Shown here one piece after another: positions 5,372 to 55,925 of a stretch of DNA of 64,000 nucleotides (position 1 is its first letter; every line of letters begins with the position of its first letter). Under the pieces are notes generated by a model. The model ran no database searches. It had not been told where the DNA came from and worked only from the letters and a program-made list of their open reading frames with translations. The stretch covers positions 92,878,001 to 92,942,000 of the forward strand of contig NC_086108.1 in assembly GCF_963921235.1 (NCBI RefSeq), given 5' to 3'. The stretch comes from Mobula hypostoma (Eukaryota). The position numbers were made by a program, and so were the translations under genes.

Positions 5372-6128
5372 ACAACACAGAAACATCTCTTCAGCAAACT
5401 CGTCCAGGTTGGCCAAGTTGCCAACCTGAGCCAGATCCATTTACCTGTGCTTGGCCCATAAACTTTTAAATCTCTGTATCGATGAACTTCTTTAAATATA
5501 CTTTAAATGATATAATTGTACCCACCTCTATCACTTCCCCTGGCATCTTATTCCAAATACCCAACACCCTGTGTATGCTAAAGTTGCCCCGCAGGCCCTC
5601 TTTAAACCCTCTCATCTGAAGTCCATGCCTTTCAGCTGAGGGCTCCCCTACCCTGGAAAAACAACTGTGACCATTAACCTTACCTATGCAACACATACAA
5701 AATGCTGGAGGAACTCAGCAGGTCAGGCAGCATCTATGGGAATGAATAAACAGTCAATGTTTTGGGCCGAGACCCTTCATCAGGACTGAAGAATCTATGG
5801 CCTTCACGATTTTATATACCTGTGCAGCAGGAGTTCCCAAACTTTTTCATGCTATGGATCCCTACTGTTAACTGAGGGGTCTGTGGGTGCCTCTGCTTAT
5901 GGGGTCACCCCTCAGCCTCCTAAGCTCCAGGTAAAAAATTCCCCAGCCTACCCAGCCCCCCCGCTTATAATTCAAGCCCTCCAGTCTCAGTAGCATCCTT
6001 GTGAGTCTTCACTGCACCCTCTCCAGCCTAATGACATTCTTCCTACAGCAAGGCAAATAGACCCGCACACAGTACACCAAGTGTGGTCTCACTAACGTCT
6101 TGTACAGCTGTAACATGACATCCCAAAC
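5372..6128 (-). mobile_element. CR1 LINE 3' fragment with Penelope terminus (5691-5790) and hAT MITE insertions
   Basis: ORF 5466-5696 RGNFSIHRVLGIWNKMP is CR1 C-terminus-like. Confidence 0.8.
5751..5788 (-). ncRNA. Degenerate minimal hammerhead ribozyme motif
   Basis: CAGUC-CUGAUGA-A-GGGUCUCGGCCC-AAAA-CAUU-GACUG; G12 lost. Confidence 0.65.
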
Positions 6129-6414
6129 CAATTACCCTCTTAAGTGCCCTCCAAAATGGCCCAAAACACAACTTAGATGATGGTGGAATTCAGGTACAAT
6201 AACTATTCAGGCATTCAGACGGGCAGAGTTTGGCAAGGTGCTGAAGTACTCGTTCCTGGTACGGGCCAATGAGATTCATGAAGACGGGCAGGAAAAGGTT
6301 TGCATATACACGTGGGCTGAAGGGCCCATTTCTGTGATGCAGAACTTTTTGACTCATGGGCAATAAAAGATGGGTCTTGTCAGTCATACCATCACCCAGT
6401 GATCAATAAAAATA

Positions 6415-6960
6415 AATACACAGAAAGGTGGTGAAATGCAGCTGGTCAGGCAGCATCTATGGAGAGGAATAAGCAGTTGAGGGCCAAGACCTTTCATCAG
6501 GACTGGAAAGGAAGGGAGAAAAAGACATATTAAGAAGGTGGGGGGGGGGAAGAGGAATGAGTAGGTACGAGGGGAATACCTACTCATGACAAGGTGAGGG
6601 GGAAGGTGGAAAAGGCTGAAGAAGAAAGAATCTGATAAGAGAGAAGAGTGGACCACAGGAGAAAGGGAAGGAGGGGCACCAGAGGGAGGTGAACAGCAGT
6701 GAGAAGGAGAGAAGGTGTAAGAGGGGAGCCAGAATGGGAAATGGAAAAAGAGAGAGATGTGGGAGTGGGGAGAAATTTCTGGAATCTAGAACAAATCAAT
6801 GTTCATGCCATCAGGTTGCAGGTTACCCAGATGGAATATGAAGTGTTGCTCCCCCAACCTGAGAACCACTTCACCATGGCAGTAAAGGAGGCCATGGACC
6901 AACAATCTGAATGGGAATGGGAAGTAGAATTACAATGGGAAAACATGCATCCTGTGGTGG
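6415..6960 (-). mobile_element. Penelope-like family A 3' fragment
   Basis: Terminus ctttcatcaggactgg plus body homologous to 510-1360. Confidence 0.8.
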
Positions 6961-7127
6961 ACAGAGCGGATGTGTTCGCTTAGGGATTGTCATAAGACTG
7001 TCCAACTATTGCTTGGTTAGTATGTATGAGATCTTTCACTACCTTCTTCATACTGCTCCCCCTGGGGTGCCAAGGGTGGGTTTCGGCAGCTACAAAATTC
7101 GTCCATCCACTTCACTGAGAAACTTAC

Positions 7128-7297
7128 CTACTGCAAAGAGGCAGAGTCCGACAATGTACCCCTTGCTCATTATGATGCCACGTATGACTTGTTGGAAAAT
7201 GTCACTCTCGTTGACCAGATGAATAAGCGCCGCGAGAAAGTGGGAGTAACAGGCTGGGCTCTGAGGGACACAGCGATTAAAGAGCGGGAGTGGCTTG
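7128..7297 (-). CDS. SLC44A3: SLC44A3 exon (170 bp, phase 2/1)
   Basis: ttccAG|C...G|GTaagt; KPLPLFNRCVPQSPACYSHFLAALIHLVNESDIFQQVIRGIIMSKGYIVGLCLFAV, with the FNRCVP motif and the start of TM2. Confidence 0.94.
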
Positions 7298-7764
7298 CTG
7301 GAAGAACAAACGACAGCAATGTAAATGACAAGGTCAAGGTCAAGGACTCGTGAAGTTGTTAATAAACTTGCAGTTATACAACTTTGTCACTTCCAGACAA
7401 CTCTACAGCAGAGGAAGTAAAGTATTTATACGAGGAGTGGTCACTGTTGTAAGGTTGCATTTAGACACAGAAACAGAGCTAATGCTTTGCTGCAACTCAG
7501 GGCTCTGGGAACAGCTTTCTCCTCTTTGCCATCAGATTTCTGATTGGACAATGAACCCGTGTACAAGAACTCAATATCTTTTTCCTCTCCTTTTGCACTA
7601 CTTGATTAATTTATATTTAAATATGTATTTATTGCAATTTATAGTTTTTTTTTATTATTATGTATTACAATGCACACCAGTGATTCTAAATGGTATGGAA
7701 TGATGACACCATGAGCCTCCAGAAATTTTCTCCTTACTTTCTGGCCAAGAAAGATCTCCAATAT

Positions 7765-8095
7765 AGAACATAGAAACATATAAATCTACAGCACATTACA
7801 GGCCCTTCGGCCCACAATGTTGTGCCGACTATGTAACCTAGTCTAGCAACTGCCTAGAATTTCCCTACTGCGTAGCCCTCCATTTTTCTAAGCTCCGTGT
7901 ACCTCTCTAAGAGTCTCTTAAAAGACCCTATTGTATCCACCTCTACCACTGTCACTGGCAGTGCATTCCGCACTTCCTCCACTCTTTGTGTGAAAAACTT
8001 ATATATGACATCCCCCTTGTACCTACTTCCAAGCACCTTAAAACTATGCCTCCTTGTGTTAGCCATTTCGGCCAGAGGAAAAAGCCTCTGGCTAT
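7765..8095 (-). mobile_element. CR1 LINE 3' end
   Basis: ORF 7854-8099 FFTQRVEEVRNALP; (ttctatg)n-type tail. Confidence 0.85.
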
Positions 8096-8109
8096 CCAAC
8101 CACGCCCTA

Positions 8110-16445: not shown

Positions 16446-17029
16446 GATTGGTTTATTATTCTCACCATACAGAGATATAAAGCAGAGTTTTTACATGCCA
16501 CCCAGGTAGATCATGCCATTGTATATGTATATCGAGGTAGTAAAAAGAAAGCAGCATGCAGAATACAGTGTAGCAGATACAAACAAAGAGCCGTTCAGGT
16601 AGACAAAGTACAAGGGCCACGATGAGGTAGATCGAGAAATCAAAACTCATCTTTAGCATTACAGAGCAGATTAAAGATCTAAAGATTAGCTTTACTTGTT
16701 GTGGAATCACCAGCCTGGGATGCACTGGTGGGGATGGCTGCAGCAGAGTTACTGAGAGAGAATGGCCTGTCTCCACACTGAGGGCATCTTTTATCAGAGT
16801 CAGAATCAGGTTTATTTTCACTGACATACTGTACATCCTGAAATTCAATATTTTCTGGCAGCAGTACAGTGCAACATATAGCATAGACTACAAATTACAA
16901 TAAGAAGTGCATATATTTCTATAAATACATATATAGGAGAGAGAGGGTCTCTCTCCCCTACCACCCACCTGACCAACCAGGACATATACCAGAAGCACTG
17001 TGTTTGTAGAGCACTCTGCGTTGTCAAGG

Positions 17030-17595
17030 ACTCTTACACCATGCAGTTTTGGTCCCCTAATCTGAGGAAAGACATCCTTGCCATAGAGGGAGTACAAAGA
17101 AGGTTCACCAGATTGATTCCTGGGATGGCAGGACTTTCATATGATGAAAGACTGGATGAACTAGGCTTATACTCGTTGGAATTTAGAAGATTGAGGGGGG
17201 ATCTGATTGAAACGTATAAAATCCTAAAGGGATTGGACAGGCTAGATGCAGGAAGATTGTTCCCGATATTGGGGAAGTCCAGAATGAGGGGTCACTATTT
17301 GAGGATAAAGGGGAAGCCTTTTAGGACCGAGATTAGGAAAAACTTCTTCACACAGAGAGTTGTGAATCTGTGGAATTCTCTGCCACAGGAAACAGTTGAG
17401 GCCAGTTCATTGGCTATGTTTAAGAGGGAGTTAGATATGGCCCTTGTGGCTAAAGGGATCAGGGGGTATGGAGGGAAGGCTGGTGCAGGGTTCTGAGTTG
17501 GATGATCAGCCATGATCATAATAAATGACGGTGCAGGCTCAAAGGGCCGAATGGCCTACTCCTGCACCTATTTTTTATGTTTCTATGTTTCTATG
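17030..17595 (+). mobile_element. CR1 3' end (young)
   Basis: Open ORF 17041-17496 QFWSP...LYSLEFRRLRGDLIETYK...FFTQRVVNLWNSLP; (tttctatg)n tail. Confidence 0.92.
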
Positions 17596-18314: not shown

Positions 18315-21300
18315 ATCAGATTTATGGATCGTTGGTATCTTTTCTGGGGAAGGTACGACCTGTACAAAAACGATGGGTTACACCTAAACCCAAACCCAAG
18401 GTGGGGGGGGGGGGACCAATATCCTTGCGGGTAGATTTGCTAGAGGTGTTCGGGATAGTTTATACTAATTTGGCAGGGGGATGGGAACTGGAGTGATAGT
18501 ACTGAGAATGAGGTACTGTAGTTGGGTTACAAACAGAGGCAGTGTGTAGTGAGACTGCTAGCAAGGAGAGCTGGTGATAGGGTATATTGCAATCAACAGG
18601 ATGAGTTGCAATGTAAAAGGTGGACAAAATCAAAAAGGGTGAATACAGGACTGAAGGTGTTACATTTGAATGCATGCAGTATACGGAATTAGGTAGATGA
18701 CCTTGTAGCATAGTTGCAGATTGGCATGTACGACATTGTGGGCATTACTGCATCTTGGCTGAAAGATTATAGCTGGGCGCTTAATGTCCAAGGACACACA
18801 TTGTATTGAAAAGACAGGCTGGTACGCAGAGGGGTGGCGTGGTGCTGTTGGTAAAAAACGAAATCAAATCATTAGAACAAGGTGGCATAGGATCAGAAGG
18901 TGTTGAATCGTTGTGGGTAAAGCGAAGAAACTGCAAGGGTAAAAGAGACTGATGAAAGGTATATACAGACCCCCAAACAATAGTAAAGATATGGTCTACA
19001 AATTACAATAGGAGATAGAAAATGGATGTCAAAAGGGCAATATTATGATAGTCATGGGGGAAAATTCAGTATACAGGTAGCTTGGAAAACTAGGTTGGTG
19101 CTGGATCAAGAGGGGGAATTTCTGGAATTCCTACGAGATGGGCTTTTTAGAACAGCTTGTGGTTGAGCCCACTATGGGATTAGCTGTTCTGGACTGGGTG
19201 TTGTACAATGGACCAGAATGGATTAGAGAGCTTAAGGCAAAGGAACTCACCATGCAATTTGAGGAGGAGAAGCTAAAGCCAGATGTATCAGTATTACAGT
19301 GGAGAAAAGGGAATTACAGAGGCATGAGAGAGGAGCTGGTCAGAATTGATTGGAAAAGAATCAAGATGGCAAGGATGACAGCACAGCAGCAATGGCTGGA
19401 AATTCTGGAAGCAATTCAGAAGGCACAGGATATATACAGTACATCCCAAAGAGGAAGGAGAGGGACAAGGAAATGGTGGATGAACTGAATGAGTATTTTA
19501 CATCAGTTTTCATTGTGGAAGACACTAGCAGTATGCTGGAAGCTTGAGAGTGTCGGGGCAGAAGTGAGTGAAGTTGCCATTATTAGGGAGAAGGTTCTCG
19601 GGAAATTGAAAGGTCTGAAAATAGATAAGTCACCTGGACCAGATGTTGTACGCCTCAGGGTTCTGAAAGAGGTGGCTGAAGAGATTGTGGATGCATTAGT
19701 AATAATCTTTCAAGAATCAATTGACACTGCCATGGTTCCGGAGGAGTGGAAAATTGCAAAGTCTCTCCACTCTTCAAGAAGGGAGAGAGGCAGAAGAAAG
19801 GAAATTATAGTCTAGTTAGTCTGACCTCAGTGGTTGGGAAGATGTTGGAGTTGATTGTTAAGGATGTGGTTTTGGGATACCTGGAGGCACGTGATAAAAT
19901 AGGCCGTAGTCAGCATGGTTTCCTTAGGGGAAAATCTTGCCTGACATATCTGTTGGATCTCTTTGAAGAAATAACAAACAGGACTGACAAAGGAGAGTCG
20001 GTGGTTGTTGTGAACTTGGATCTTCAGAAGGCCCCTGACAAGGTGCCATGCATGAGGCTGCTTAATAAGTTAAGAGCCATGGTATTACAGGAAAGATATT
20101 AGCATAGATAGATCATTGGCTGATTAGTAGGAGGGAAAGAGCAGGAATAAAGGGACACACATCAAAATTGCTGGTGAACGCAGCAGGCCAGGCAGCATCT
20201 CTAGGAAGAGGTACAGTCGACGTATTAGGCCGAGACCCTTCGTCAGGACTAACTGAAGGAAGAGCTACGTCGACTGTACCTCTTCCTAGAGATGCTGCCT
20301 GGCCTGCTGCGTTCACCAGCAACTTTAATGTGTGTTGCTTGAATTTCCAGCATCTGCAGAATTCCTCGTGTTTGCGAGGAATAAAGGGAGTCTTTTCTGA
20401 CTGGCTGCTGGTGACTAGTGGTGTTCCACAGGGGTCTGTGTTCCGACCGCTTCTTTTTACGTTCTATATTAATGATTTGGATGACAGAATTGATGACTTT
20501 GTGGCCAAGTTTGTGGATGGTACAAAGATAGATGGAGCGGTAGGTAGCTTTGAGGAAATAGAGAGACTACAGAAAGACTTGGACACTTTTCTAAATGCAG
20601 AGAAAATTCAAAAATCTTCGGTGCAAAGGAACTTGAGAGACCTCGCGCAGGATTCTTTAAAGGTTAATTTTCAGGTTGAGTTTGTGGTGAGGAAGGCAAA
20701 TGCCATGTTAGCATTCATTTCAAGAGAACTAGAATATAAAAGCAAGGATGTAATGTTGAGGCTTTAGGAAGCACTGCTGAGGCCTCAGAGTATTGTGATA
20801 TGTTAACACTAAGGAATTAAAAGCCACTGGTCATCTCCGTCTGTTTCCCAAATGTGGACTGAGAGTAGAAGTACAACCAGGTGAGTGGACTTTCCAAAGT
20901 GTTGTCGTGGGATGGCATGATAAGCATTCTTGATGGTGGTATAACAGTGGTCAAGTCTGTTGGCTCCTTTGGTTCCAGGTGACATGTTGGTGGCAGTTGT
21001 TCAGAGACTTTTTCAAGCTGGCCTGGTTAAAATTTCCGACAATGATAGGGAAAGCATCAGGTTGTGCAGTTTTGTGCCTGCTGATTACATTGCTCAGCTC
21101 CTCCAGTGTCTCTCTGATGTAGGCCTGAGGTGGAACACAGGCGAGGATAAATTTTTTTAGTCAGAGTGTAGTGAATCTGTGGATTGCTTTGTCACAGACT
21201 GTGATGGAGGCCAATTTCGTGAGTATATTTAAGACGGAAGTTTATCATTTCCTGATCGGTCAGGGCATCAAAAGATATGGCGAGAAGGCAGGTGTATGGG

Positions 21301-21392
21301 GTTGAGTGGGATCCAAAATCAACCACAATGGAATGGCGGACCAGAGTCGATGAGCTGAATGGCGAATTCTGTTCCTATGTCTTATGGTCTTG
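18315..21392 (+). mobile_element. CR1 LINE (end of ORF1, APE endonuclease and RT), decayed
   Basis: [35 protein letters not shown] motifs; interrupted at 20156-20376 and about 20795-21130. Confidence 0.9.
20156..20376. mobile_element. Short fold-back Penelope family A insertion
   Basis: Near-perfect inverted arms; 13-bp TSD aggaataaaggga (20143-20155, 20377-20389); hammerhead remnant 20214-20251 (-) with CUGACGA and GUC intact and GAAA changed to AAUA. Confidence 0.85.
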
Positions 21393-22761: not shown

Positions 22762-23084
22762 GTGTGGGTATGTGGCCAAGTGGTTAAGGCATTGGACTAG
22801 CGACCTGAAGGTCGTGAGTTCGAGCCCTAGACGAGGCAACGTGTTGAGTCCTTAAGCAAGGCACTTAACCACACAGTGCTCTGCGACGACACCGGTGCCA
22901 AGCTGTATTGGCCCTTGCCCTTCCCTTGGACAACATTGGTGTCGCAGAGAGGGGAGACTTGCAGAATGGGCAACTGCCTGTCTTCCATACAACCTTGCCC
23001 AGGCCTGCGCCCTGGAGAGTGAAGACTTTCCAGGTGCAGATCCATGGTCTCTCAAGACTAACGGATGCATTATTATTATTATTA
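22762..23084 (+). mobile_element. tRNA-derived SINE (family S) with CORE-like block
   Basis: A box TGGCCAAGTGG, B box GTTCGAGCC, gtccttaagcaaggcacttaac, (tta)n tail; three copies in the window. Confidence 0.88.
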
Positions 23085-23089: not shown

Positions 23090-24150
23090 AAACAAAGACT
23101 GACAACGAATATGCTAAAGAAGACAAAACTGTACAAATAAAATCAATACTGAGAAGATGAGTTGTAAAAAGTCCTTGAAAATGAGTTTGTAGATCATAGA
23201 ATCAGTTCACAGCAATGGTGAATGAAATTATTCACAGTGGTTCAGGAGCTTGATGGATGTAAGGTAATATTGTTCCTGGCAGTGTGGGACCTACCTCCTT
23301 CCCATTGGCAGCATCAAGAAGAGGGCATGGCCCGGAAGGTGGGGATCTTTGATGATGCATGCTGCTTTCTTGTGGCAATGCTCTATCTCAACGTACACAC
23401 TGGTGGGGAGAGCTTCGCCTGTGATGGACTGGTCTGTACCCACCACTTTCTATAGCCTCCTCTGTTCCTGGGCGTTAGTGTTTCCATACCAGATCATGAT
23501 GCAACCAGTTAGGATACTCTCTATTGGAGTTTGTCAAAATTCTTGGTGACATGCCAAATCTACACAACTTCTAAGAAAGTCGGGGTACTGTTGTATTGAC
23601 ACTTATGGATCCTTTGATATGTTAACACTAAGAAATTTAAAGCTGTTGACCGTCTCCACCTCTGTTCCCCTAATGTGTACTGGCTCATGGACCTCCATCT
23701 TCTTCCTCCTGTAGTCGATAGTCAGCTTTTTGGTTTGTTGGCTCCATTCATCTAGATTTTCAATCTCCCTCCTAAATGCTGATTAGTCACCACCTTTGAT
23801 TTGGCCAACAACAGTGATGTCACAAAATGCTGGAAGAACTCAGCAGGTCAGGCAGCACCTATGGAAATGAACAAATAGAATAAACGGTCAATGTTTGTTC
23901 ATTTCCAGGGATGTTGCCTGACCTGTTGAGCTCCTCCAGCATTTTGTGTATGTTGCTTTGAAGTTCCAGTATTTGTATTTGCAGAATTTCTTGTGTTAGC
24001 GTTGTAATTAGCAAACTTAATTACCATGCTGGAGCTGTACTGAACCACACAATTGTAAGGATAAATGAGAGGAACAGGAGACTAAGCACACGGCCCTGTG
24101 GTGTAACTGTGCTGATGGTGAGTGTGAAGGAGATGCTGCTGCTAATCCGT
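23090..24150 (-). mobile_element. Rex1/Babar RT 3' fragment with fold-back Penelope insertion (about 23821-23998)
   Basis: Reverse-complement homology to 4150-4800. Confidence 0.7.
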
Positions 24151-26604: not shown

Positions 26605-28205
26605 CTTCTTGAATGTGACAACACAAGCAGACAGAGAGGCAAAGAAAGTGTATGGTACACCTTCATCAGTCAGGACAGTCATATTGCAACTGTATAAAAC
26701 TTTGGCTGGACTATATTGGAATATCGTACGCTGTTCTCGTTGTTTCATCACAGCAAAGATGTGGAGACTTTGGAGAGAATGCAGAAGAGGTTAAAAAAAA
26801 GATGCTGGAGGAACTGGGTAGATTTGGCAGCATCTATGGAGGGAAATAGTCAATGGACATTTCAGGTTGAGACCCATCTGAAGTGATGAAGCATTGCAGC
26901 TCAAAACTGACTGTCCATTTTCCTCCATCGAGCCTGCCAACCTGCTGAGTTCCTCCAGTGTCTTGTTTTTTGTCTCCAGATCCTAGCATCAGCAGTCTCT
27001 TGTGTCTAACAGGATGTGACTGGATTAGAAAGTATCAGCTATTAGGAGAGTCTGGACAAAATGGATTGTTTTCTCGGAGTAAACATGGTCCAATCACACC
27101 GCAAGCCTGGACGTTCTTCCTTCTCCCCCATCCCATCAGGCAGGGGATACAAGAGGTTGAAAGCACATATCCTCAAGCTCATGGACAGCTTCTGTCTCAC
27201 TGTCATAGACTATTGGACAGTTCCCCAGATCATTTCACAATCTCACTCGTTAACACCTTGCACCTTATTGTCTACCTGAACAGCAGTTTCTCAGTAACGG
27301 TAACACTTCTACACTGTTATTGCTCAGCTTGTACTGCCTCAATGGACTGTCGTAACGAATCGATCTGTATGCAAGACAAGCTTTTCACTGTACGTCAGTA
27401 GATATGACATTAATTCACCAGTTTACCAATTTTCTCTGGGACACCAGAAGCTGAGGGGTGACCTGATAGAAATATATAAAATGATCAGAGGTACAGGTAG
27501 GGTTGGGTGATGGGGTGGAGTTACATCTCTACCAAAGGAGATGTAAGGTGTTCCATCCCTCCGCTAGCCAGCAGATCGCCCTTGAGCAAGGTGTAGCACC
27601 TGCTTGTCCCACTGATCAGGGACACGTGAAGCCACGGGAGCAGGTGGTGGATGGTCGTATGAGCAGCTGGTGCATATCACAAGTCCTGGTGATGCAACCA
27701 CTGACGCCAGGCAGACAATCTCTGAAGAGTATTGACAATGGCTGGGGTCACCTGTCTCGTAAAGACACTGCTCAGAAGAAGGCAATGGCAAACCACTTCT
27801 GTAGATTTGCCGAGAACTATCATGGTCATGGAAACATGATTGCCTACATCATACAACACAGCCCACAATGATGATGATGATGATGATGACAGGTAGGGTA
27901 GTCAGCGATTGTTTTCCTCCAGGATGGAAATATCAAATATTAGAGGGTACAGGTTTCAGGTGAGAGGGGGAAAGTTTGAAAGAGATGCATGGTGTAAGCT
28001 TTTTAGGCAGAGAGTGGTAGATGCATGAAACACATTACCAATAGTGGTGGAGAAAACAGACCCAATAGTGACACTTAAGAGGCACGTGAGCATGCAAGGA
28101 ATGATGGGACATTGATTATATGCCAGCTGATTGGTTTAATCGAACTTAGCTAGATATAATGGGTCAAAGGGCCTTTTCCTAAGTTGTACTGTTCTGCATG
28201 ATCTC
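26605..28205 (+). mobile_element. CR1 3' fragment interrupted by a Penelope fold-back (about 26800-27008), a Rex1-type 3' piece and family Y
   Basis: LQLYKTL motif; gctgaggggtgacctgatagaa; collinear across the insertions. Confidence 0.7.
27504..27888 (+). mobile_element. Family Y RTE/BovB-related short element, full length
   Basis: 11-bp TSD acaggtagggt (27493-27503, 27889-27899); (atg)n tail. Confidence 0.82.
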
Positions 28206-28418: not shown

Positions 28419-28594
28419 CTGGGTGGGAAGATGACACAGCCAGTACATTGTCAATAAAGATGCAAAGTAGGAACTTAGCTACTTAGGAGCTCCAAAATGT
28501 ATATGATAAATATGCACTCTATACCATAAATATTTTGAAACAATACAACACAATTCACATATTTAAAAAAAATGAATATGACAAACCACACATT

Positions 28595-33645: not shown

Positions 33646-34399
33646 CATATGCAGCAAAAACTTTGCAGTTTTTGCAGGGTTGCACCAAATGGCCACAACC
33701 CTGAGAAAGAAAGGAAAAGGTTGTTTTTTTTATCCCAGTTGATGTCATTTTTTGAGATTAAAAGCCCAACTGTTTCAAGCAACCAATAACGCTGTTGAAT
33801 AAATGCACAAAATGCTGGAGGAACTCAGCAGGTCAGGCAGTATCTCTGGAGGGAAATGGGAGTCAATGTTTTGGGTCGAGACTCGTGCATGCTGCTGGAT
33901 AAATGCCACTTTAAAAAATGATAAATACTGAAGAAAGGATGGTTAAAGATTGATGGGAGGTAGAGGACAGTAGAGTGAATGTTTGATTGCTCCAATTAAA
34001 AGCAGCACAGAAGATCTCTTAGTTATCTTTAGTATTTTCTCCATTAGATTTCTGTTTAATAGTGTTGAAATACACTCGGCAACCACTCTGTTAGATATGG
34101 GAGATGCCTCACAAAATAGCTTGCTGAGTGTATTTCTGTACGTTTGTGGTCCATCCACTTCAAGGTTCAAGCTGCTATGTGTTCAGATGCTCTTCTGCAC
34201 ACCACCGTTGTAAGCTGTGGTTATCTGAAGAGTTGCTTTCCTGTCAACTTGAACCAGTCTGGCCATTCACCTCTGACCTTTCTCATTAACAAGGTGTTTC
34301 CACCCACAGAACTGCAGCTCACTGCGTGTTTTCCCTTTGTTTCCGTAGCATTCTCTGTACATTTTTTTTTTGTTAGCTATTTTTTTTTCTTTCTTATTG

Positions 34400-38590: not shown

Positions 38591-38599
38591 AAGAGTCAG

Positions 38600-39540
38600 G
38601 AATCGGAAGGTGGAGCATGGTAGAACTAGTAGTACATCGCAGGGATCAGTGCTGGATCTGTTGTTTTTTGTCATCTGTGTCAATGATCTGGATGATATTG
38701 TGGTGAACTGGATCAGTAAAATGGACAATGACACCACGATTAGGGTATACTGTAGTGGACAGTGAGGAAGGCTATCAAAGCTTGCAGCAGGATGTGAGCC
38801 AGCTGGAAAATAGCAGATGGAATTTAATGCAGAAAAATTTGAGGTGTACTTTTGGAGGACCAACTACGGATAGTTGTACATAGTGAATAGTAGGGCTCTG
38901 AAGAGTGTAGTAGAACAGAAACATATTTTCTTGAAAGTCGCATCACAGGTAGATAGGGTTGTAAAGAAAGCTTCTGGCACATTGGCCTTCATATTTCAAA
39001 GTGCTTGGATGTTATGTTGAAGTTGTATAAGACACTGGTGAGGCCTAATTTAGAGTATAGAGTGCAGTTTTGGTCACCTACCTCCAGGATAGATGTAAAT
39101 AAGATTGTAAGGATTTGCATGGATGTTGCCAGGACTTGAGGTCCTGAATTATAAGGTAAGATTCAATAGGTTAGGACTTTATTCCATCGAACGTAAAAGA
39201 TTGATTGGGGCATACAAAATTAAAAGGGGCATAGATAAGGTAAATGTAAGCAGGCTTTTTCACTGAGGTTGGATAAGACTACAACTAGAGGTCATGGATT
39301 AAGGGTGAAAGGTGAAATATTTAAGAGGTAACATGAGGGGAACTTTTTCACTCAGAGGGCGGTTAGCATGTGAAATGAGTTGCCAGTTCAAGTGATGGAG
39401 GTGAGGTTGATTTAACATTTAAGAGAAATCTAGATACTTAGTTATGGTCCAGGTGCAAGTCAATGGGACAGGCAGATTAATGTTTCAGCATGGACTAGAT
39501 GGGCCAAAGAGCCTCTTCCTATGCTGCAGTGATCTATGAC
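38600..39540 (+). mobile_element. CR1 RT 3' fragment
   Basis: QGSVLDLLFFVICVNDLD; 3' tail ctatgac. Confidence 0.8.
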
Positions 39541-41899
39541 AATCCCAGGGAAATCAGTAGTCTCTAAGGTACTCAAACCACCCCATCCGGTACCAACAAT
39601 CATTCTATGGTCAAAATCACATTACTTCTCCATTCTGATGTTTAGTCTGACCAACTACTGAAACTTCTGACCGTGTCTGCATGTTTTTATGCAGTGAGTT
39701 GATGCCACATGATTTGCATTAATGAGCAGGTGTACAGGTGTACCAAATAAAATGGTCACTGAGTGTATGTCAATGCAAAAAGACAAAATAATAATCAGAA
39801 TTGTGAGAAACGAAACAGATTGTATTTATAGAGAACCTTCCATATCCACAGGACGAGGAAAGTAGCTTTGCTGCCAATGAGTTGAGAGTAGATAAAGGCA
39901 TTCGGTCCAGTTCTGATGTAGGCAGAAGATAGAATATTGCCCTGGATCCTGCTCTTGAAATGTCGTGCCTGAGAAGAAGCTTCTGTGGGTCGTGGTATAC
40001 CAGGAACTGACCTTTTTTGCAAGTGACCCACAGCTGCAATTTGTAGAAAGCTTTAGCAGCTCCCGCATCAAGCTGTGCTTGAGCATCCTCATTGGGACAC
40101 AGGGTCAAGGCACACAAGTTATTATTCTACAGATTTATTGAGTATGCCCACAAGAAAATTAATCTCAGGGTTGTTTATGGTGACGTATATGTACTTTGAT
40201 AATAAAATTTACTTTGAACTTTAAGCCATGACATCAGCACGTCAAAGCCAAAGAAAGCAACCAAAACCAGCCTGACTCAACAAAACCACTGGTTAAGTCG
40301 TGCTGAAGGGTGTGCCAGAAGCATGGCCGGAGAGGAAACTTGTAGAGAGCAACCCAGAAATTCTGCTCTGCGCAAGTCCTCGACCTGCAACATAAAGTCT
40401 GCTCCCTTTCCACAGACTTTTGACTTACTGGGCATTTCCAGAATCTTCAATTTAGATTCCTGAAATTTCACTTGCGTGTTTTGCAAGTAGGGGCAGGCAC
40501 AGATGTGTGTACGCATGAGAGACTGAATGCATGTCTGAGCAGGCTATGTGACACAACTCAATATTTTTGGAGAAACACCTAAAGATTAGCTTTATTTGTC
40601 ACACATACATCAAACTAAACTTCAAAATTCAAAGTAAATTTACTATGAAAGTATGTATGTCACCATATACAACCCCAAGATTTATTTTTTTTTTGAGGAC
40701 AATCAGAGTAAATACAAGAAACACAACAGAAACAATGGAAGACTGCACAAGATGGACAACAAACAACATAAAGAAAGGGAAGAAAGAAATGACAATAATA
40801 AATACATAAGCAATAAATATAAAGAACATGAAATGAAGAGTCATTAAAAGTGAGTCCATAGGTTGTGGGAACAGCTCTGCGATGGGGTGAGTCTTCTTCT
40901 TATTGTGTCCACGGACAGTCCATACATGGCCCAGCTAGAACTGGACACATTTTTGCGCTTTGTTGTTGAATTTGGCAAGATCTGCAACAGGGGTGAGTGA
41001 AGTTCAGTGAAATTAACCCCTCTGGTTCAATAAAATGCTGCTTCATACAGTGAAATGCGTCGTTTTCATCAAATCAGCGAGGATTGATTTGGGCAGACCA
41101 CAAGTGTCACCACAGTTCCCTCGGCAACACAGCTTGCCCACAACTCACTGACCCCCTTGGAACATGCAAGGGAGTTGGAGCACCTGGAGGCAACCCACAA
41201 GCTCACTTGTTTATGCTCTTAATGTTAAAGAAAAAATGTGTGAGTCTGTCTCTAGAACCTCAGATTTATTGTGAGGTGACTAAGGAGCCACTCCTTGTAT
41301 ACCTGACCACGAGTGCAAGTGAGTATATAAACGTCGTGGAAATTTACTTTGGTGCCTTGATGTACATCCAGGAATAAGAAACCAAAGATGTAAGAAGTCT
41401 CTTTTAATAGAGTGTTGTGATCAATTGCTTTCAAAAACCAGTCTCACAGCTAACGCTCCTCAGACCCACAATAAATTACAGAAAGTTGTGAATGGAGCCC
41501 GGTCCATCACACAAAGCCCCCTACCCTCCATTGACTCTGTCTGCACCTCCCACTGCCTCGGAAAGGCAAGCTACACAATCACAGACCCCTCCCGTTGTGG
41601 TCATACTCTCTTCTCACCTCTCCCACTGACCAGAGAATACTTGAGAGCACATACCAGAAGCCTCAAGGAAAGCTTCTACCCGCTGTTATCTATCCCCTGA
41701 ATGGAGATCTCATATGCTGGAAGATTAATTCCTGATCTTCCAATCTAGCCCACTGTGGCTTCTTACACTTTAATTGCCCATGTCACTCTCTCTGAAACTG
41801 CAACACTGCATTCTTCATCCTGTTGCTTTTAACTATCTTGATGCCCTTATCTCAGGCAAGCTGTCTACACAGCACACAGACAAAAGCTTTTCACAGTAT

Positions 41900-42515
41900 C
41901 AGATACAAGAGAGTTTTCAGATGCTGGAAATCATGAGCAATGCACAGAAAATGCTGGTGAAACTCAGCAAGTCAGGCAGCATCTACAGAGGGGAAATGAA
42001 GAGTCGACGTTTTGAGCTGAGACCCTTGACCAGGACTGGAGAGGAAGGGGGCAGAAGCCAAATGATAAGGTTGGTGGGGGGGTACAAGCTGGCCAGTGAT
42101 AGGGAGTGCTGGTGAGGGGGAAGGTGGTGGGTGGGGGGAGGGCTAATAATATGAGAGGATGGGAGGTGATAGCTGGAAGCGGTAAAGGCAGAAGGAGGAG
42201 GAATCTAATCGGAGAGGACAGGGGACATGAAATAACGGGATGAAGGTGGTGAACCAGAGGGAGGGGATGGACAGGTCGTGATGGTGGAGAGGGCGAAGAG
42301 ACAGGTGAGAGGGCCACTAGAATGAGTGGAAACACAAAAGTGGTAGGGGTGGGGGTAAAAATGGAGGGGGAGTGGTTACCGGACGTTCGGGAAATGTTCA
42401 TGCCATCAGCTTTGAGATAACCCAGATGTAAAATGAGGTGTTGATTCAACCTGCATTTGACTTCATCATGGCAGTGGAGGAGGCCCTGGACGGACATTTT
42501 GGTGTGGGAATGAGA
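41900..42515 (-). mobile_element. Penelope-like family A 3' fragment
   Basis: Terminus plus degenerate hammerhead at 42002-42038; ORF 41964-42497 GLLHCHDE...QHLILHLG. Confidence 0.8.
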
Positions 42516-43444: not shown

Positions 43445-43970
43445 ATGTGCCTAAACTGGAGAGGGTTCAAAGGAGGTTCACAAAAATGATTTCAGGCTTG
43501 AATGTCTTGTCATATGAAGAGTGTTTGATAGCTTTGGGCCTGTATTCACTAGAATTCAGAAGAATGAGGGGTGATCTTATTGAAATCCATTGAATAGTGA
43601 AAAGCCTTAATAGAGTGGATGTGGAGAGGATGTTTCCTATGGTAGGACAGTCTAAGACCAGAGGACACAGCCTCAGAGTAGAGGGGTGCCCTTTTAGAAT
43701 GCAGATGAGGAGGAATTTCTTTAGCCAGAGGGTGGTAAATCTGTGGAATTCATTGCCACAGGCAGCTGTGGATGCCAAGTCTTTACTGTATGTACGTTTA
43801 AGACAGAGGTTGATAGGTTCTCGATTGGTCAGGGCATGAAGGGATACGGGGAGAAGGCAGGAAACTGGGGTTGAGAGGAAAATTGGATCAGCCATGATGA
43901 AATGGTGGAGCAGACTTGATGGTCCAAATGGCGTAATTCTGATTCTATATCTAATGATCTTATGCTCTTA
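43445..43970 (+). mobile_element. CR1 3' end
   Basis: RRNFFSQRVVNLWNSLP. Confidence 0.88.
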
Positions 43971-45159: not shown

Positions 45160-47015
45160 ACCCCCACAGCTCCTGTCATCCATGCCACCTCATTCTCTGA
45201 GGCCGAGGTGAAAGCATCCTTCACAATGGTGAATCTATGGAAGGCACCTGGCTCAGGCAGCCTGCTTGGTCGAGTACTAAAAAGCTGTACTAATCACCTG
45301 GTTGGAGCGTTTATGGACAACCTCGCACTTCCGCGGTCCAAGGTATGTACTTGTTTCATCAATCGTCCACTAGGAACATGGTAACTTTCCTCATTGACGC
45401 TCATCCAGCAGCACATATATCCACTGTGATGACAATAGACTATAGACAATAGGTGCAGGAGTAGGCCATCCGGCCCTTCGAGCCAGCACCACCATTCACT
45501 GTGATCATGGCTGATCATCCACAATCAGTATCCAGTTCCTGCCTTATCCCCATAACCTTTGATTCCGCTATCTTTAAGAGCTCTATCCATCTCTTTCTTG
45601 AAAGCATCCAGAGACTTGGCCTCCACTGCCTTCTGGGGCAGAGCATTCCACATATCCTTCACTCTCTGGGTGAAAAAGTTTTTCCTCAACTCCGTTCTAA
45701 ATGGTCTACCCCTTCTTCTTAAACTGTGGCCTCTGGTTCTGGACTCACCCATCAGTGGGAACATGCTTCCTGCCTCCAGCGTGTCCAATCCCTTAATAAT
45801 CTTAGATGTTTCAATAAGATCCCCCCTCAGCCTTCTAAAGTCCAGAGTATACAAGCCCAGTGGCTCCAATCCTTTCGACATATGACAGTCCCGCCATCCC
45901 GGGAATACTTTCGAGGGTGGTCATAAAGCGTGTCAACTCCTGCCTGAGGTATCTCCTACCTGGATTCACTCTAATTTGCCTGTGGTCACAAAGGGTCAAT
46001 AGCAGATGCTATATCATTTGCTCTTTACTCAGCACTGGAACACCTAGACAATGAAGATGCATATATCAAAACTAAGCTCCGAGAACTAGGCCTTGGTACC
46101 TCCCTGTGCAACTGCACCCCCAATTTGCACACTTGCAGACCTCAGTCAGTATGGATTGGCAACAACATCTCCTTCACAATCACCATCAGCACAGGTACAC
46201 CACAAGAATGTGTGCTTCGCCCCCTGCTTTCACTTTATACTTATGACTGTGTGGCTAAGCAGAGTTCCAGTATCATATTTAATTTTGCAGATGGCACCAC
46301 TATTGTTGGCCAAAACAAAGGTCGTGACAAATCTGAATAGAGAGAGATGAAAATCTGGTTGAGTGGTACAATAACAGCAGTCTAGCACTCAATATCAGTA
46401 AAACCTAAGGCACATTATTGACTACAGGAGGAAGCCAGAAGCCAGCCCTCATTAGGAGAACAAAGGTGGAGCCAAAGATTTTGACTTTTTTCTATAGGTG
46501 TACAGTGGTGAGTATCTTGGCAGGTTGCATCACATCCTGATATGGAAACACCAATGCCCAGGAATGGAAAAGGCTACAAAGAGTGGTGGATGAGTCCATC
46601 ACAGGCAAAGCTCTACCCACCACCAAACACGTTCACACGGAGTGCTGCCACATCAAAGACCCCCACCATCCAGGCCATTTCCTGTTCTCGCTGGTACCAT
46701 CAGAAGCTGCAGATCCCACGCTACCAGGTTCAGAAAGTTATTACCCTACAGGCTCCTAAACTAGCTTGAGTAATTTCAATCACCACTAATTTTAACCGTT
46801 ACTATGATCTACAGACCCTCTTTAAAGGACACTTTACAACTCATATTCTCAGTATTATTTTTCTTTTGCACATTGGTTGTCTTTATGTATAGTTTTTTTT
46901 GTAAATCCTATTCTATTTCTTACTTTTTTTTTTGCAAATGCCTGAAGCAAATGAATCTCAAGGACGTATATGGTAAAATACATAACTTAATAATAAATTT
47001 ATGTTTAACTTTGAA
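45160..47015 (+). mobile_element. Rex1/Babar fragment interrupted by a minus-strand CR1 3' end (about 45431-45905)
   Basis: TGTPQECVLRPLL, FADGTT; the CR1 piece has ORF 45525-45881. Confidence 0.8.
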
Positions 47016-48731
47016 ATAGTACTTTTCATGGTTTGTGAATGCCCTGAAGATCCCCACAAGCACTCGAACAATATTGACAGTCAGAAAGGCCAAGAGGGTG
47101 TGGAAGGGCCGACTGCCAAAACACAGTTAGCAGATGCTTCCTGTTTTAAACCTTAGATCCAGCCTCATGAAGTCAATGGGCAAGCACCAACTACAAGCAG
47201 TACTATCATTAGGAACTTGGGGAGACCAGGAGAATTTATTTTTAATCAGCGAGCCTTTGTGATCTGGAATGTTCTATATGAAGGGCAGGTGGAAACAGTT
47301 TCAATGGGGAAACTGGCCATAGGGTTGAAACAGAACTATTCTCAAAGGTGTGGAGAAAGAAGGATGCAGAGCACAAAGAAGATAGGGTGAACAGCCCCCT
47401 GCAGCAAGTTTATATGAAGAAAGTAACGTGCAGGAGAAATGGGAGTTAAAACTGCAGACTGAGGCACCAAGAAGGGTGTAGCAATGAAGTGGAGGTGAAT
47501 TAATCGCCTTTAACTTCCATTCTTCAAATAGTTCACATACCTCAAGCCAGGCGACTGGCTACAAAATCCACCCTTGCCTGTCTTTGAAGTGAACAACACA
47601 CACCTTCTCTCTTTGGAAATGTTTTGTCAAACATTTTGTATACTTATGCACGCAGATTTAGAGCACGTATAAAGAGAGGTGAATTTCAGCTCTGTTGTAA
47701 AAGCCTGCTATCACTGTCTAGCTTCTCACTGTTCCACTCTGTATCTTGAAAAAAAATTAAAATAATGTCTCTAACAGAGACACAAATTTAAAATTTGATT
47801 TGAAATCAGTTTAAGTTTCTAGCTAGCAAAATAACTACAACAAAATTAATGCCAATGAGAAGAAATTCTGAGATAGGCACATGGACGATAAAACAAATAA
47901 AGGCTATGTGCAGAGGAGGATAAGAAGGGTTAGATTGGAGTAGGTTAGAGGGTCAGCATTACATCTTCAGGTGAAGGCTTGTCTAATGCTCTGTGAAAAG
48001 ATTGTTGACCAGAAGTCTTAATCCTGTTCTGTCCAGGATGCTTTCTAATCTTCTAAATATCTCCAGAACTTTTTATACTTAATTCAAGGTAATTCAAGCA
48101 TCTAACCAAACTTACTTTTACTCCATGGTTCATACACCAATGGCCGTGTTCCACATTTGAACTCAATCATGAATCTAGCAGCAGAGGAGGTTACTTTGGA
48201 CTGTCACAATTGGGCAAGGATGCTGGGAGCACCAAAGTGAGATCATGAACTTTCCAGTAGAAACAACGCCTTGATTTGGCCTACTCAGACTGAACCCCAG
48301 AGCTAGTTAAAGAATATTACCTGAAGCCTATGAAGTAAACCATTGATAAGGCACTTTATGTCAATGTTCATAGGATGAGGCAATATAAAACGCATTAGAA
48401 CACTAAGACTGGATCAGGCTTCTAACAAGTCAGCCTGTGCAGATGAACAAGGCCACTGTACACTTCAGAAAGAAATTGCCAGATGAGAAATTGAATTGGC
48501 TTACATTGTTTCTATCAAGGGCAAGTTTGCAATTTTTAAGAACACACAGATCAACCTGAACATATAGGCTCAGATAACAGGATAATCAATGAAATATGAA
48601 GCTTTCTCTGGCTTCATCTTGAATACATTTTGAGAAGATAAAAAGTTCAATGTCGCCAACTGCCCCACTGCTGATTGACCATTATGCTTTAATATACACC
48701 ATCAATGAGAAAGCAGTGGTGTTATAACTCA

Positions 48732-48851
48732 AGCAACACACACAAAAAATGCTGGTGAACGCAGTATTCACCATGATGCTGCTGTCTTCACCGGCATTTT
48801 TTGTGTGTGTTGCTTGCATTTCCAGCATCTGCAGATTTCCTCGTGTCTGCA
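48732..48851. mobile_element. Very short fold-back Penelope family A insertion
   Basis: aagcaacacacacaaaaaatgctggtgaa / ttcaccggcattttttgtgtgtgttgctt; near-TSD gtgttataa(a)ctca on both sides. Confidence 0.75.
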
Positions 48852-48937
48852 GTGTTATAAACTCACTGGTTCCAAATATCAATTCATTGTTAACAATAAT
48901 CAAGTGCTGCGCTTTTCAATGATCACAGTATTTTTAA

Positions 48938-53200: not shown

Positions 53201-54150
53201 AATTGGGAAGCCAGCAGATTTATTGTACATTATTAAGCTACAGTAACTGCCCCAAGCACTAGGCCGAGTTATAGCCTTGCTAATGGCCTGGAGTTGCGGA
53301 GTTTATGATTTAATCACAGTTATCCTGTGAATTCCGTCCTGTGTGTCCTCTGAGCTACACATCTGCAAAGAGAGACTCGAATTAAATGAAGGTCTTGCTC
53401 TCTGTATAACCAGTTCCATTACGAATCTGAATCCCTGGCTAAAGGCGGATCAGAATGGAGGAGGAACACCCAGGCATGCGTTGTGCATCTCTAGACTGTG
53501 TGACGGAGGTCAAGCAGAAAAGTGGACAGAATACCCAGCAAACACAGGCACCCACTGCTCTCACTGTCGTGCGCTTTCTGCTTCACCTGCGGCCAAATCC
53601 TGCAGGTCACGCTAGCCTCACCAGCAACATGACAGCCCACAGAACCAGAGTGGAAGCAAGTTGCCGTCAACTCCCAGGGACTGAAGCTTGGAATATACCC
53701 AAATGCTCTGAATGCCAAACTAAACAAAATGAGGGGGGGCGGGGATTAAACTAAACAGGGGGGGGGGCGCGGGGATTAAAAAAAGGTAATGGGCCAGATG
53801 TGAAATGCATCCAGCTGCTCTCTCCTGAACTTCGATGCAGCTTCACTGCCAATTCCATCTCAAGTGTCCCTGGGAAATATTCCCCATCAGCCAGTCCGTT
53901 CAAAGTCTAAGTCAAGTTTATTGTCATCTGCACAAGTCCACGTGTACAGGTGCAATGAGAAAATTACTTGCAGCAGTGTCATGGGCACATGGCATTATTT
54001 AAGCAGCATTCACAAGAAAAACATAAATCATACACAATTTTTACAAGAAAGAACACAAACAGATTAAAAATTACCAAGCTCTCTTCAGTGCAAAATGATC
54101 AAAGTGGTCATGGTGATACTAAACTGTAGTGAATTCAGCCTCACCTTGGC

Positions 54151-54387
54151 AACACGTACAGAATGCTGGAGGAAATCAGCAGGCCAGGCAGGATCAATGG
54201 AAAAAATGTACAGCTGACGTTTCAGGCTGAGACCCTTCAGCAGGACTGAAAGATCTCACTGAAGGGTCTCGTCCCGAAATATTGACTGTACTTATTTTTT
54301 TACAGATCCTGCCTGGGCTGCTGAGTTCCTCCAGCATTTTGTGTGTGTTGCTTGAATTTCCAGCATCTACAGATTTTCTTTTGTTTG
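54151..54387. mobile_element. Short fold-back Penelope family A insertion
   Basis: Inverted arms; 16-bp TSD tcagcctca(c/t)cttggc (54135-54150, 54388-54403); hammerhead remnant 54211-54248 (-) with GAAACGUC intact and CUGCUGA. Confidence 0.85.
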
Positions 54388-54545
54388 TCAGCCTCATCTT
54401 GGCTTATTTTAGTCAATGATTATTTTCAAGAAAGGCACATAACTGAAGCTAACACAAACTCAGTGACTCCAGGCCATTACCATGGCTGTAGTTCAGCCTA
54501 GTGCTTGGAGGCAGGTATATAGCTTAAAAATGTACTATAAAGCTA

Positions 54546-55122
54546 AGGTTGTCATAGCTGGGGCTGGTAGTGGGGATAAGCTCCCACTACCTATAAAGTG
54601 CTCCAAATGGCGGTGACTCTAACAACCTCTGACAACCAAGTTCAACTCTTGGCCTTCACACGTGTGGCTTAGATACTAGGCCCGGCAGAACTGTTTCTAC
54701 TGACAAGAGAAAGGGGCAAAGGCGGACCACTGGCACCTCAAAACCAGTTGCTTTGGGCAGGTGGGGCTCGTCAGCCTTGGACGGCAGCCCGCTCTGATTT
54801 TAAACCTCTGTTTCCTTGTGGCCATATCCACCCATGGGAAAGAGTTCAGGAGTAAACCCTGAGGAAAAAATCCGTTGCCAGGGTCCCTAATGTTGTTTAC
54901 AACTTCACTCTGGCAACCTCTGCGATGACACTGGTGCCACAGTGCATGGGCGGGCGCTTGCCCTTCTCTTTGACTACATCAGTGACGTGGAGAGGGGGAG
55001 CCCACTACATGGGCAACAACCAGTTTTTCAAATCTTCCCACCCAGGCTTGCGTCCAAGAGAGGACACAGTCCACCAGAGGCGCAAACGCATCATCCCCTG
55101 GGATCATCGGCTGTCTGTCACC
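54546..55122 (+). mobile_element. Non-coding non-LTR-derived element, family X, copy 2 (apparently full length)
   Basis: 9-bp TSD ataaagcta (54537-54545, 55123-55131); collinear with 12644-13618. Confidence 0.75.
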
Positions 55123-55306
55123 ATAAAGCTACTAACTTACCAGGTGTGTACTCAAAGATTGTGTTGAAACTAATATACGGGAAGGTTTTAAACTCAGGAG
55201 GTTAAGCTATTTGGTCTCAATGATCACTCCATGTACTTAAACCAAGCTGCAACTTTTGGTTAATCAATTCAATCATTCCTTCTTTTTCTCACTGCAACAC
55301 ACTCAC

Positions 55307-55411
55307 CATTCCAACCCAGAAGAGAAAGAAGACAATAAGCCAGAGGATATCTGTGCACCTTCTGTAGATCTGTGGTCGCCATTCTCTGTGAGGCCCGTCA
55401 ACAGCAGACAC
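55307..55411 (-). CDS. SLC44A3: SLC44A3 (CTL3) internal coding exon, equivalent to human exon 2 (105 bp, phase 0/0)
   Basis: tttcAG|GTG...ATG|GTgagt; translates VSAVDGPHREWRPQIYRRCTDILWLIVFFLFWVGM, matching the CTL3 N-terminal REWRPQIYRxCTD motif and TM1. Confidence 0.93.
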
Positions 55412-55418
55412 CTGAAAT

Positions 55419-55925
55419 AAAAATGAGGAAGTCTGCAGATGCTGGAAAGACAAAGCAACACATGCAGAATGCCAGAGAAGCTCAGGGGGTCAAACAGCAT
55501 TCTGAATAAACAGTCGCCATTTCGGGCCGAAGCCCTTCTTCAGGACTGAGAAGGAAGAGGGATGATGCCAGAATAGAAAGCTGGGGGAAGGGGAAGGAGG
55601 ATAGCTGGAAGGTGATAGGAAAAGTCAGGAGGCTGGGAAAGGTAAAGGGCTGGAGAGGAGGGAATGTGATAGGAGTGGACCAGGGAGAAAGGGAAGAAGG
55701 GGACCCAGGGAGAAAAGGCAGGTAGGAAGAGGTAAAAGATCAAAATGGGGAAGGGAGGAGAGAATTTTTTTAAACCAGAAGGAGAAATCGATAGTCATGC
55801 CTTCAGGTTGGAGGCTACCCAGATAAAATATAAGGTTTTGCCGCTCCACCCTGAGGGGGGCTTCATCTTGGCACAAGAGGAAGCCATGAACTGACGTGTT
55901 GGAATGGGAATTAAAGTGCACGGCG
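55419..55925 (-). mobile_element. Penelope-like family A 3' fragment abutting the SLC44A3 exon acceptor
   Basis: Plus strand aaatgaggaagtctgcagatgctgga is the family terminus; ORF 55625-55963 HGFLLCQDEAPLRVERQNLIFYLGSLQPEGMTIDFS. Confidence 0.85.
55511..55548 (-). ncRNA. Minimal hammerhead ribozyme motif, cleavage triplet mutated
   Basis: CAGUC-CUGAAGA-A-GGGC(UUCG)GCCC-GAAA-UGGC-GACUG. Confidence 0.72.

Follow-up and report, generated by a model that had tools for sequence, protein, structure and literature searches.

Minimal type I hammerhead ribozymes (min-HHRs) of metazoan Penelope-like elements (PLEs) have been in print since 2014 (Cervera and De la Pena 2014, PMC4209133), and the role of PLE hammerheads has been stated to be unclear (Craig et al. 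2021, PMC8557442). In the Poseidon element PAc of Anolis, the one PLE reconstituted in vitro, the ribozyme is assisted by protein, and insertion does not depend on it (Frangieh et al. 2024, PMC11167929). Here we describe a repeat terminus carrying such a motif in the ray Mobula hypostoma, within a 64-kb window (the whole stretch of DNA that was analysed, 64,000 nucleotides). The ray motif shares with the min-HHRs of PMC4209133 the core boxes, an extra base after A9, the G10.1-C11.1 pair, the palindromic positions 15-16, the U-rich 5′ flank and the location in the pseudo-LTR (pLTR), mostly as single truncated copies and as opposite-strand pairs, whereas its short stem II (4 bp) and 5-bp stem I set it apart. 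In the supplement to that study, a Neptune motif from Acropora has its helix III letters in common with the ray motif, together with a stem II of 4 bp and a loop of 4 nt; no cartilaginous fish stands among the rows in the second of the three parts of its file 2, and shark, Callorhinchus and Leucoraja are absent from two of its files. With the ray family, a motif class already known across metazoans gains an example from cartilaginous fishes. We consider it highly probable (about 0.88) that the insertions are dead-on-arrival, 5′-truncated copies of a Neptune-type PLE in a batoid genome; in the master elements, the motif was probably a weak, conditional ribozyme.

Insertions of the terminus and their host element

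The count of insertions is based on blastn and an nhmmer profile of the terminus run against the window, with the reversed window as control. The profile gave 17 matches in the window (15 with E < 1e-10 and two at E 0.018) and none in the reversed window; since five pairs of matches are each the two arms of one insertion, there are 12 insertions. The eight hammerhead sites listed in the original prediction were all recovered at their coordinates and on their strands, and the window holds more copies than that list. This is the only PLE terminus detected in the window, in a search confined to its own clade.

GIY-YIG remnants are found in 4 of the 12 insertions, on the same strand and 232-688 nt upstream of the hammerhead. 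At 1195..1798 (minus strand), a 5′-truncated and frameshifted ORF remnant of Neptune type, covering the end of the RT thumb, the Cys linker and GIY-YIG, matches the homologues P0002 and P0003 at 68-74% (tblastn, E 1e-58 to 1e-64); it lies upstream of the hammerhead copy at 478..509 (minus), in which U4 and G5 are changed and the cut site and the 3′ strand of stem I are deleted. The insertion at 6404..6905 (minus) comprises a GIY-YIG end (6792-6905), a pyrimidine-rich 3′ UTR, a hammerhead (6474-6505) with a deleted GAAA box, and the 3′ segment. Two further minus-strand insertions, 41885..42515 and 55400..55924, have a GIY-YIG end (42363-42515 and 55781-55924), a 3′ UTR, a hammerhead, the 3′ segment and, in addition, a tail; the hammerhead of the former (42002-42038) is changed at A6, G8 and G12, and that of the latter (55511-55548) has a single core lesion, U16.1 to G, and a fully Watson-Crick stem II. 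In the 3′ pLTR, the GIY-YIG stop is followed by a pyrimidine-rich UTR (about 230-350 nt), the minimal type I hammerhead, about 65 conserved nt and an optional tail of 30-45 nt. A conserved structure of the 3′ segment and tail is unsupported (-3.9 kcal/mol, with two-sided change in 1 of 17 pairs).

The remaining insertions are shorter. A copy at 6..42 (plus strand), its 5′ side cut by the window edge, has U4 changed and stem II degraded. The terminus-only copy at 5678..5793 (minus), which is nearest to the consensus and served as the reference of the read pile-up, carries a hammerhead (5751-5788) whose single core lesion is G12 to A and which also has two CpG changes, at 16.2 and 17. A third, at 33800..33883 (minus), which is absent from the earlier list, is truncated within the hammerhead. 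Short fold-backs account for 5 of the 12 insertions, and three of them have target site duplications (TSDs). The fold-back at 20143..20389 is young, lies within a LINE RT remnant and is flanked by an exact 13-nt TSD (20143-20155, 20377-20389); its left arm contains a hammerhead on the minus strand (20214-20251) with G12, A14 and C11.1 changed, its right arm, on the plus strand, begins about 5 nt before the cut site and continues into the tail, and the arms are identical at 67 of 69 positions. The fold-back at 54135..54401, which has a tail and a 14-nt TSD with one mismatch, carries a hammerhead in its left arm (54211-54248, minus) with A6 changed to C and a partial hammerhead in its right arm (from 54259, plus) that also has C at position 6. 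The smallest, at 48719..48860, has a tail, no hammerhead and a 9-nt TSD (48719-48727, 48852-48860). Of the other two, both with the tail on the right, 23803..24000 lacks most of the hammerhead and a detectable TSD, and the old fold-back at 26778..27010 has two partial hammerheads and no convincing TSD. Overall, no TSD was found for six insertions, that of a seventh (33800) is doubtful, and the copy at 6-107 fell outside the TSD check.

The host element is assigned through homologues. The closest named homologues of the ORF remnants are Hypanus and Mobula proteins at 69-74% identity, most of them with PF26215, and in these a linker of C-X4-C-X2-C type precedes a VIY..YIG endonuclease. A CX2-5CxxC linker, common to Neptune and Nematis and described as their mark (PMC8557442), occurs in P0002, P0003 and P0017 and, with a deletion, in the window at 1502-1798. 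The homologues match PF01541 (GIY-YIG) at E 5e-4 to 4e-3, which is under the curated cut-off, P0017 matches RVT_1, and the window remnants align across the GIY-YIG endonuclease region of the homologues; a Pfam search of the ORF pieces in the window returned no PLE domain. Because the window contains neither a full-length element nor an RT core, the clade is assigned from the linker and endonuclease of the homologues rather than from a tree. Furthermore, 5′ truncation, the inverted partner and the optional tail are all present, as in Neptune-clade PLEs. The prediction that the motif is a minimal type I hammerhead within the terminal repeat of a Penelope-like element is upheld by the four upstream ORF remnants on the same strand and by the match to the published consensus.

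The hammerhead motif and its decay

The column-majority consensus of the eight copies (alignment A1) reproduces the predicted 38-mer letter for letter and matches every item of the published min-HHR consensus. It contains all 11 invariant core bases and the G10.1-C11.1 pair beside a U-rich 5′ flank, and the extra A between 9 and 10.1 is present in 8/8 copies. Stem I (5 bp) closes the motif, which makes it type I, with 91% of cells paired, and stem II (4 bp) has 83% of cells paired; helix III is an ACGU palindrome in the consensus and AUAU in two copies, with no stable helix. The CUGANGA and GAAA boxes, U16.1 and H17 are all found in this consensus and together in none of the 12 single copies, and the full core is intact in 0/12 aligned copies, as had been claimed. 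The further claim that each copy is broken at a different position does not hold, as G12 to A recurs in 5 of the 11 copies having that column. The weakest columns of the eight-copy alignment are C11.1 (4/8), G12 (4/7) and position 16.2 (4/7).

The Rfam scans, which took in the window (E up to 5) and two broken single copies (E up to 10) and left out the consensus, found no hammerhead; a general minimal-hammerhead descriptor found no perfect site in the window and, with one mismatch, three sites (5788, 55548 and the unrelated 24714) vs none in six shuffles. The resemblance of the motif to hammerheads is real, and the self-cleaving RNA proposed for the source element is, from its sequence, a putative activity. 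The minimum free energy of the monomer, -12.7 kcal/mol, belongs to a fold in which the core and the helix III segment pair with each other, vs -10.5 kcal/mol for the open hammerhead fold; the double-hammerhead dimer reaches -19.9 kcal/mol, vs -25.4 for two monomers and -33.7 for the cofold minimum, all computed without tertiary contacts. Such energy models predict that the active dimer is not favoured and that a lone monomer misfolds. Two-sided change was found in 0 of 9 pairs among the 12 decayed copies, a level reached by 332 of 500 shuffles; as a sample for covariation these copies are few, and their changes are post-insertion.

In each of two DNA runs, approximately 160,000 contigs can be aligned to the copy at 5678..5793, which bears out the predicted large fossil family, whose size is in the order of 1e5-1e6 degenerate copies. 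Over the helix III/GAAA half of this pile-up, the main variants listed are CpG transitions; together with the contig numbers, they indicate a huge family that decays mainly at CpG. In the aligned copies of the window, changes affect 34 of 90 cells at CpG positions vs 104 of 774 elsewhere (Fisher p 7e-8), and the core decays at the background rate (13/107 vs 91/667 non-CpG cells, p 0.76). Where the reference copy has its three CpG lesions, 40-56% of depth shows the consensus letter despite reference bias, and partner CpG transitions reach 8-27%. For 5769-5788, which holds the CUGAUGA box, no variant at or above 5% is listed, and the pile-up is weakly informative there because its alignments are reference-biased and differences are incompletely counted. 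The tail and the fold-back joints recur genome-wide in contigs of 4/4 runs; the two of these that were presumed to be RNA consist of contigs that may derive from DNA, and they bear on neither expression nor cleavage. In metagenome contigs, an exact 31-mer of the terminus had no match, and a protein search returned 29 loci with distant PLE relatives, among which the descriptor found one perfect min-HHR (L013, on the strand opposite the ORF match); 2 of 20 shuffles also had one.

Proposed life cycle and alternative readings

By analogy with published PLEs, reverse transcription would begin at either of two internal sites, so that some copies have the tail and others lack it, and would stop early, often adding an inverted second arm; this may be why the terminus with its hammerhead far outnumbers the ORF. 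In the master elements, the motif was probably a weak, conditional ribozyme: alone, it would fold into an inactive rod, and it would cut after GUC only as a dimer joined through the palindromic ACGU, or when the protein of the element remodels it. All long copies extend across the cut site, and since copies read through it, the RNA that served as template was presumably uncleaved or re-ligated when copied. After insertion, copies would be free of selection, and the methylated CpGs at C11.1-G12, 15.2-16.2 and 17 would decay first. In model coordinates, the arms start at 15, 17, 18, 23, 35, 35, 36, 61 and 79, with the cut site at 41/42; a turn of the fold-backs at the cut site was considered and rejected, as no arm start maps there.

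The foremost alternative, tentative in our judgement, is that the motif is hammerhead-derived and catalytically dispensable, that core-dead masters or non-autonomous derivatives kept transposing, and that the fold is at most a signal for protein binding or RT positioning. The youngest insertion (20143..20389) points to a core-dead template, as three changes fall within four bases (C11.1-GAAA), the four other CpGs of its motif are intact and the change at A14 is found ahead of the right arm as well; the C at core position 6 in both arms of 54135-54401, arm starts away from the cut site and the normal insertion of HHR mutants in vitro (PMC11167929) lean the same way. However, only these two insertions point to such a template, conversion can restore the identity of arms, and the C found in both arms may belong to the junction. 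Moreover, in the consensus the core is complete and both stems are retained, and PLEs across metazoans have kept this architecture, implying long-term selection. The short copies might instead be a separate non-autonomous retrozyme or SINE-like family, spread via hammerhead-cleaved circular RNA, rather than truncated PLE ends. Eight of the 12 insertions do lack an ORF remnant, and non-LTR retrozymes are reported from one chondrichthyan genome (bioRxiv 2026.07.22.740005), but the 17 matches include five inverted and no head-to-tail tandem pairs, the 3′ end is fixed while the lengths make up a truncation ladder, four copies run into the GIY-YIG ORF, and copy ends lie off the cut site; this origin is improbable and already disfavoured. 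A chance likeness within the repeat would fit the missing Rfam matches (window and broken single copies) and covariation, but is scarcely credible given that 11 core bases, the extra base after A9, G10.1-C11.1, the stems, the palindrome and the U-rich flank co-occur at a PLE site and that six shuffles of 64 kb contain no perfect descriptor match.

It is possible, if doubtful, that part of the family was amplified from templates whose hammerhead core was already dead, in which case cleavage would be dispensable for PLE transposition in vivo, and that, with three CpGs lying within the catalytic half, methylation by the host by itself disables several hundred thousand inserted ribozymes. The family is large enough for subfamily-level sequence to serve as a natural mutational scan, showing whether PLE hammerheads are under selection for catalysis or travel as passengers. 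Its value lies in scale: with 1e5-1e6 copies and several subfamilies, the core of the masters and 5′ ends at the cut site can be checked from sequence alone.

Comparison with known systems

A literature search returned no paper on a batoid PLE-hammerhead family; the chondrichthyan tables of bioRxiv 2026.07.22.740005 may list it, and Repbase and Dfam were outside the search. With Neptune-clade PLEs (PMC8557442), the ray family shares a C-terminal GIY-YIG, a Cys-rich linker, strong 5′ truncation, an adjacent inverted copy and a one-sided tail of 30-40 bp; it differs in that many insertions are reduced to 140-270 nt. As in PAc, the hammerhead lies close to the end of the pLTR, a tail separates two alternative 3′ ends, and copies extend across the cut site. 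PAc, however, belongs to a different clade, and protein-assisted cleavage and internal initiation have been shown for PAc, whereas they are proposed for the ray element; PAc starts in an AC-rich stem-loop, whereas the ends of the ray element are UG-rich on the RNA strand (PMC11167929).

Non-LTR retrozymes (Cervera and De la Pena 2020, PMC7229834; Li et al. bioRxiv 2026.07.22.740005) resemble the ray copies in their type I hammerhead, short non-coding units and PLE connection, but they are head-to-tail tandem repeats with mostly canonical hammerheads, and 0 of 12 insertions here are tandem. The ray family, in the order of 1e5-1e6 degenerate copies, compares with approximately 4,000 hits to a strict descriptor in coelacanth and 9,000 in Xenopus (PMC4209133), counts that are not like-for-like. 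Non-LTR retrozymes reach up to 120,000 copies in axolotl, and the scale of the ray family is therefore not unprecedented.

Hammerhead copies and their consensus

All eight stretches named in the original prediction were present as described, and the 38-mer proposed as their consensus proved, in a 12-row alignment, to be the exact majority consensus of those copies. A terminus profile built from them matches the window 17 times but its reversed sequence not once; 10 of the matches form five inverted pairs, giving 12 insertions per 64 kb. That no single copy is intact was borne out, as none of the 12 aligned copies keeps every core position; a single core lesion is carried by four of the eight (those starting at 6, 5751, 54211 and 55511). 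A hammerhead descriptor check likewise found no perfect site and three with one mismatch in the window, and none in six shuffles. Rfam returned no hammerhead match for the broken copies scanned. Each copy had been said to be broken at a different position; lesions do differ among copies, but 5 of 11 share the change from G12 to A.

Carrier element and insertion structure

Of 126 candidates, 17 are homologous to the minus-strand frame 1499-1828 at E up to 0.001; Hypanus sabinus and Mobula hypostoma proteins rank highest (69-74% identity), and sea-urchin proteins contribute an RT domain. By these homologues the host would be a ray-like fish. The homologues carry a Cys-rich linker, a mark of Neptune and Nematis in the available text of PMC8557442, followed by a GIY-YIG endonuclease (Pfam scores just below the curated cut-off). 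Searching the window back with these homologues recovered four endonuclease remnants, every one of them minus-strand (1195-1798, 6792-6905, 42363-42515 and 55781-55924), and a same-strand hammerhead copy lies downstream of each. The intervening gap is 232, 286 or 351 nt and 76-81% pyrimidine in three copies, and 688 nt in the fourth, which has an extra AT-rich block. From the remnants upstream and the linker and GIY-YIG of the homologues, the motif is assigned by sequence to the 3′ pseudo-LTR of a Neptune-type Penelope-like element (PLE). In the first PLE copy the 3′ UTR contains an AT-rich block, a few hundred nt long and within 540-1040, that the other three ORF-bearing copies lack.

Fold-backs, 140-270 nt long and with a one-sided tail, account for five of the 12 insertions, three of them lying between target-site duplications (TSDs) that measure 13 nt, 14 nt (one mismatch) and 9 nt, and the tail also occurs on two ORF-bearing copies. 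For PLE insertions, inverted partners and a one-sided 30-40 bp tail are the arrangement that the available text of PMC8557442 describes. The minus strand holds all four ORF-bearing copies and six of seven single-arm insertions, and the plus strand the tail-bearing arm of all five fold-backs; no host gene was identified as an explanation.

Other repeats accompany these insertions. Remnants of LINE RT from several families, presumably CR1-like, are dense (3890-4549, 16882-17496, 19081-21363, 28539-33824, 37187-38765, 43457-43967, 45525-45920 and 60653-64000), and two pieces match Pfam RVT_1. Into one remnant is inserted a 133-nt inverted repeat (30916-31399; 89%, arms 218 nt apart) adjoining a low-complexity TAT-rich stretch. 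Upstream of 57849-58196, a 482-codon stop-free frame (58187-59635, minus), which we take to resemble a hAT (Buster/Charlie-type) transposase, returned no significant match when searched against Pfam and PDB sequences; the region on its 3′ side (57410-57679) aligns in inverted orientation with 22799-23016 and 35256-35477 at 81-92%.

Family size, ancestor and decay

Four public runs, each made up of contigs, were aligned at 80% likeness to 5660-5820, around the terminus-only reference insertion 5678-5793 (minus). DNA runs from two organisms yielded 167,566 of 27.6 million and 158,998 of 34.2 million records, and two contig runs guessed to be RNA yielded 16,589 and 8,303. The fossil family had been called large, and about 160,000 contigs from each of two DNA runs aligning to one copy uphold this; scaling 12 insertions per 64 kb in this one window to 2.65 Gb of contigs gives about 5 × 10^5 copies, of which only the order, 10^5-10^6, is claimed, contig counts not being copy numbers. 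Opposite-strand joints, which reveal fold-backs, appear in all four runs, and loose ends of aligned contigs match the tail and also the UTR, the latter as its purine-rich complement.

At the lesions of the reference copy, the consensus letter makes up 48-56% (G12), 40-54% (16.2) and 40-53% (C17) of depth despite pro-reference bias, and the partner CpG transitions 8-27%. Transitions on both strands mark a CpG as ancestral, and the family ancestor therefore had GAAA and GUC. Because the consensus letter reaches about half of depth and published minimal hammerhead motifs also permit A16.2 and U17 (PMC4209133, available supplement), part of the changes at 16.2 and 17 may be source variants rather than decay. 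No variant of at least 5% was listed in stem II and the CUGAUGA box, a reference-biased region where differences are incompletely counted.

Lesions in the hammerhead copies are non-random. With 16 poorly aligned spacer columns excluded, CpG positions are off consensus in 34/90 cells versus 104/774 elsewhere (p = 7 × 10^-8), and core positions outside CpGs have changed about as often as those around them (13/107 versus 91/667 cells, p = 0.76). The CpG bias, the recurrent G12 change and this unexceptional core decay show the inserted copies to be neutral relics.

Some templates may already have been core-dead when copied, a hint from two insertions that serves as a lead only. The youngest fold-back, 20143-20389 (arms 67/69 identical, 97%; exact 13-nt TSD), has three changes clustered in the C11.1-GAAA stretch and four other motif CpGs intact, and may derive from such a template. 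In insertion 54135-54401, C at core position 6 in both arms (54211-54248 and 54259-54290) suggests a shared template variant or subfamily. The former insertion breaks a LINE RT remnant, and a 219-codon stop-free frame spans it. Helix III is AUAU, the other palindrome of published minimal hammerheads, in 6-42 and 54259-54290, which may reflect change on both sides of the dimer helix rather than decay; L013, one of 29 metagenome loci of distant PLE relatives, has the same variant (near 1615, minus).

Catalysis, copying and known systems

The putative ribozyme is probably weak and conditional, and energy models agree: the predicted monomer is a rod with the core paired to the helix III segment (-12.7 versus -10.5 kcal/mol), and the predicted double hammerhead lies at -19.9 against -33.7 for the favoured dimer. 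In the available text of PMC4209133, a schistosome minimal hammerhead is inactive as a monomer and weakly active as a dimer; in that of PMC11167929, the Anolis PLE hammerhead cuts only with protein present, its mutants insert normally and RNA-seq ends are absent at the cut site. Covariation was found in none of nine pairs. Every long copy continues past GUC, and not one of nine truncated arms begins at the cut site; the copied RNA would therefore have been uncleaved or re-ligated. By analogy with the Anolis element (PMC11167929), reverse transcription would start internally at two sites, leaving the tail optional.

The motif itself is a real minimal hammerhead by its sequence, of a kind already in print, with putative catalysis. 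Our literature search, which covered neither repeat databases nor bioRxiv supplements, found no publication on this batoid family; Penelope is not mentioned in the available part of a shark-and-ray genome preprint, and PLEs and retrozymes are reported from one chondrichthyan in that of bioRxiv 2026.07.22.740005. The accessible texts give about 4,000 motifs in coelacanth and about 9,000 in Xenopus (PMC4209133), and up to 120,000 retrozyme copies in axolotl (PMC7229834). In the available PMC4209133 supplement, the published metazoan consensus agrees with that of the window in every listed feature, and an Acropora Neptune motif shares with it the length of stem II and the letters of helix III.
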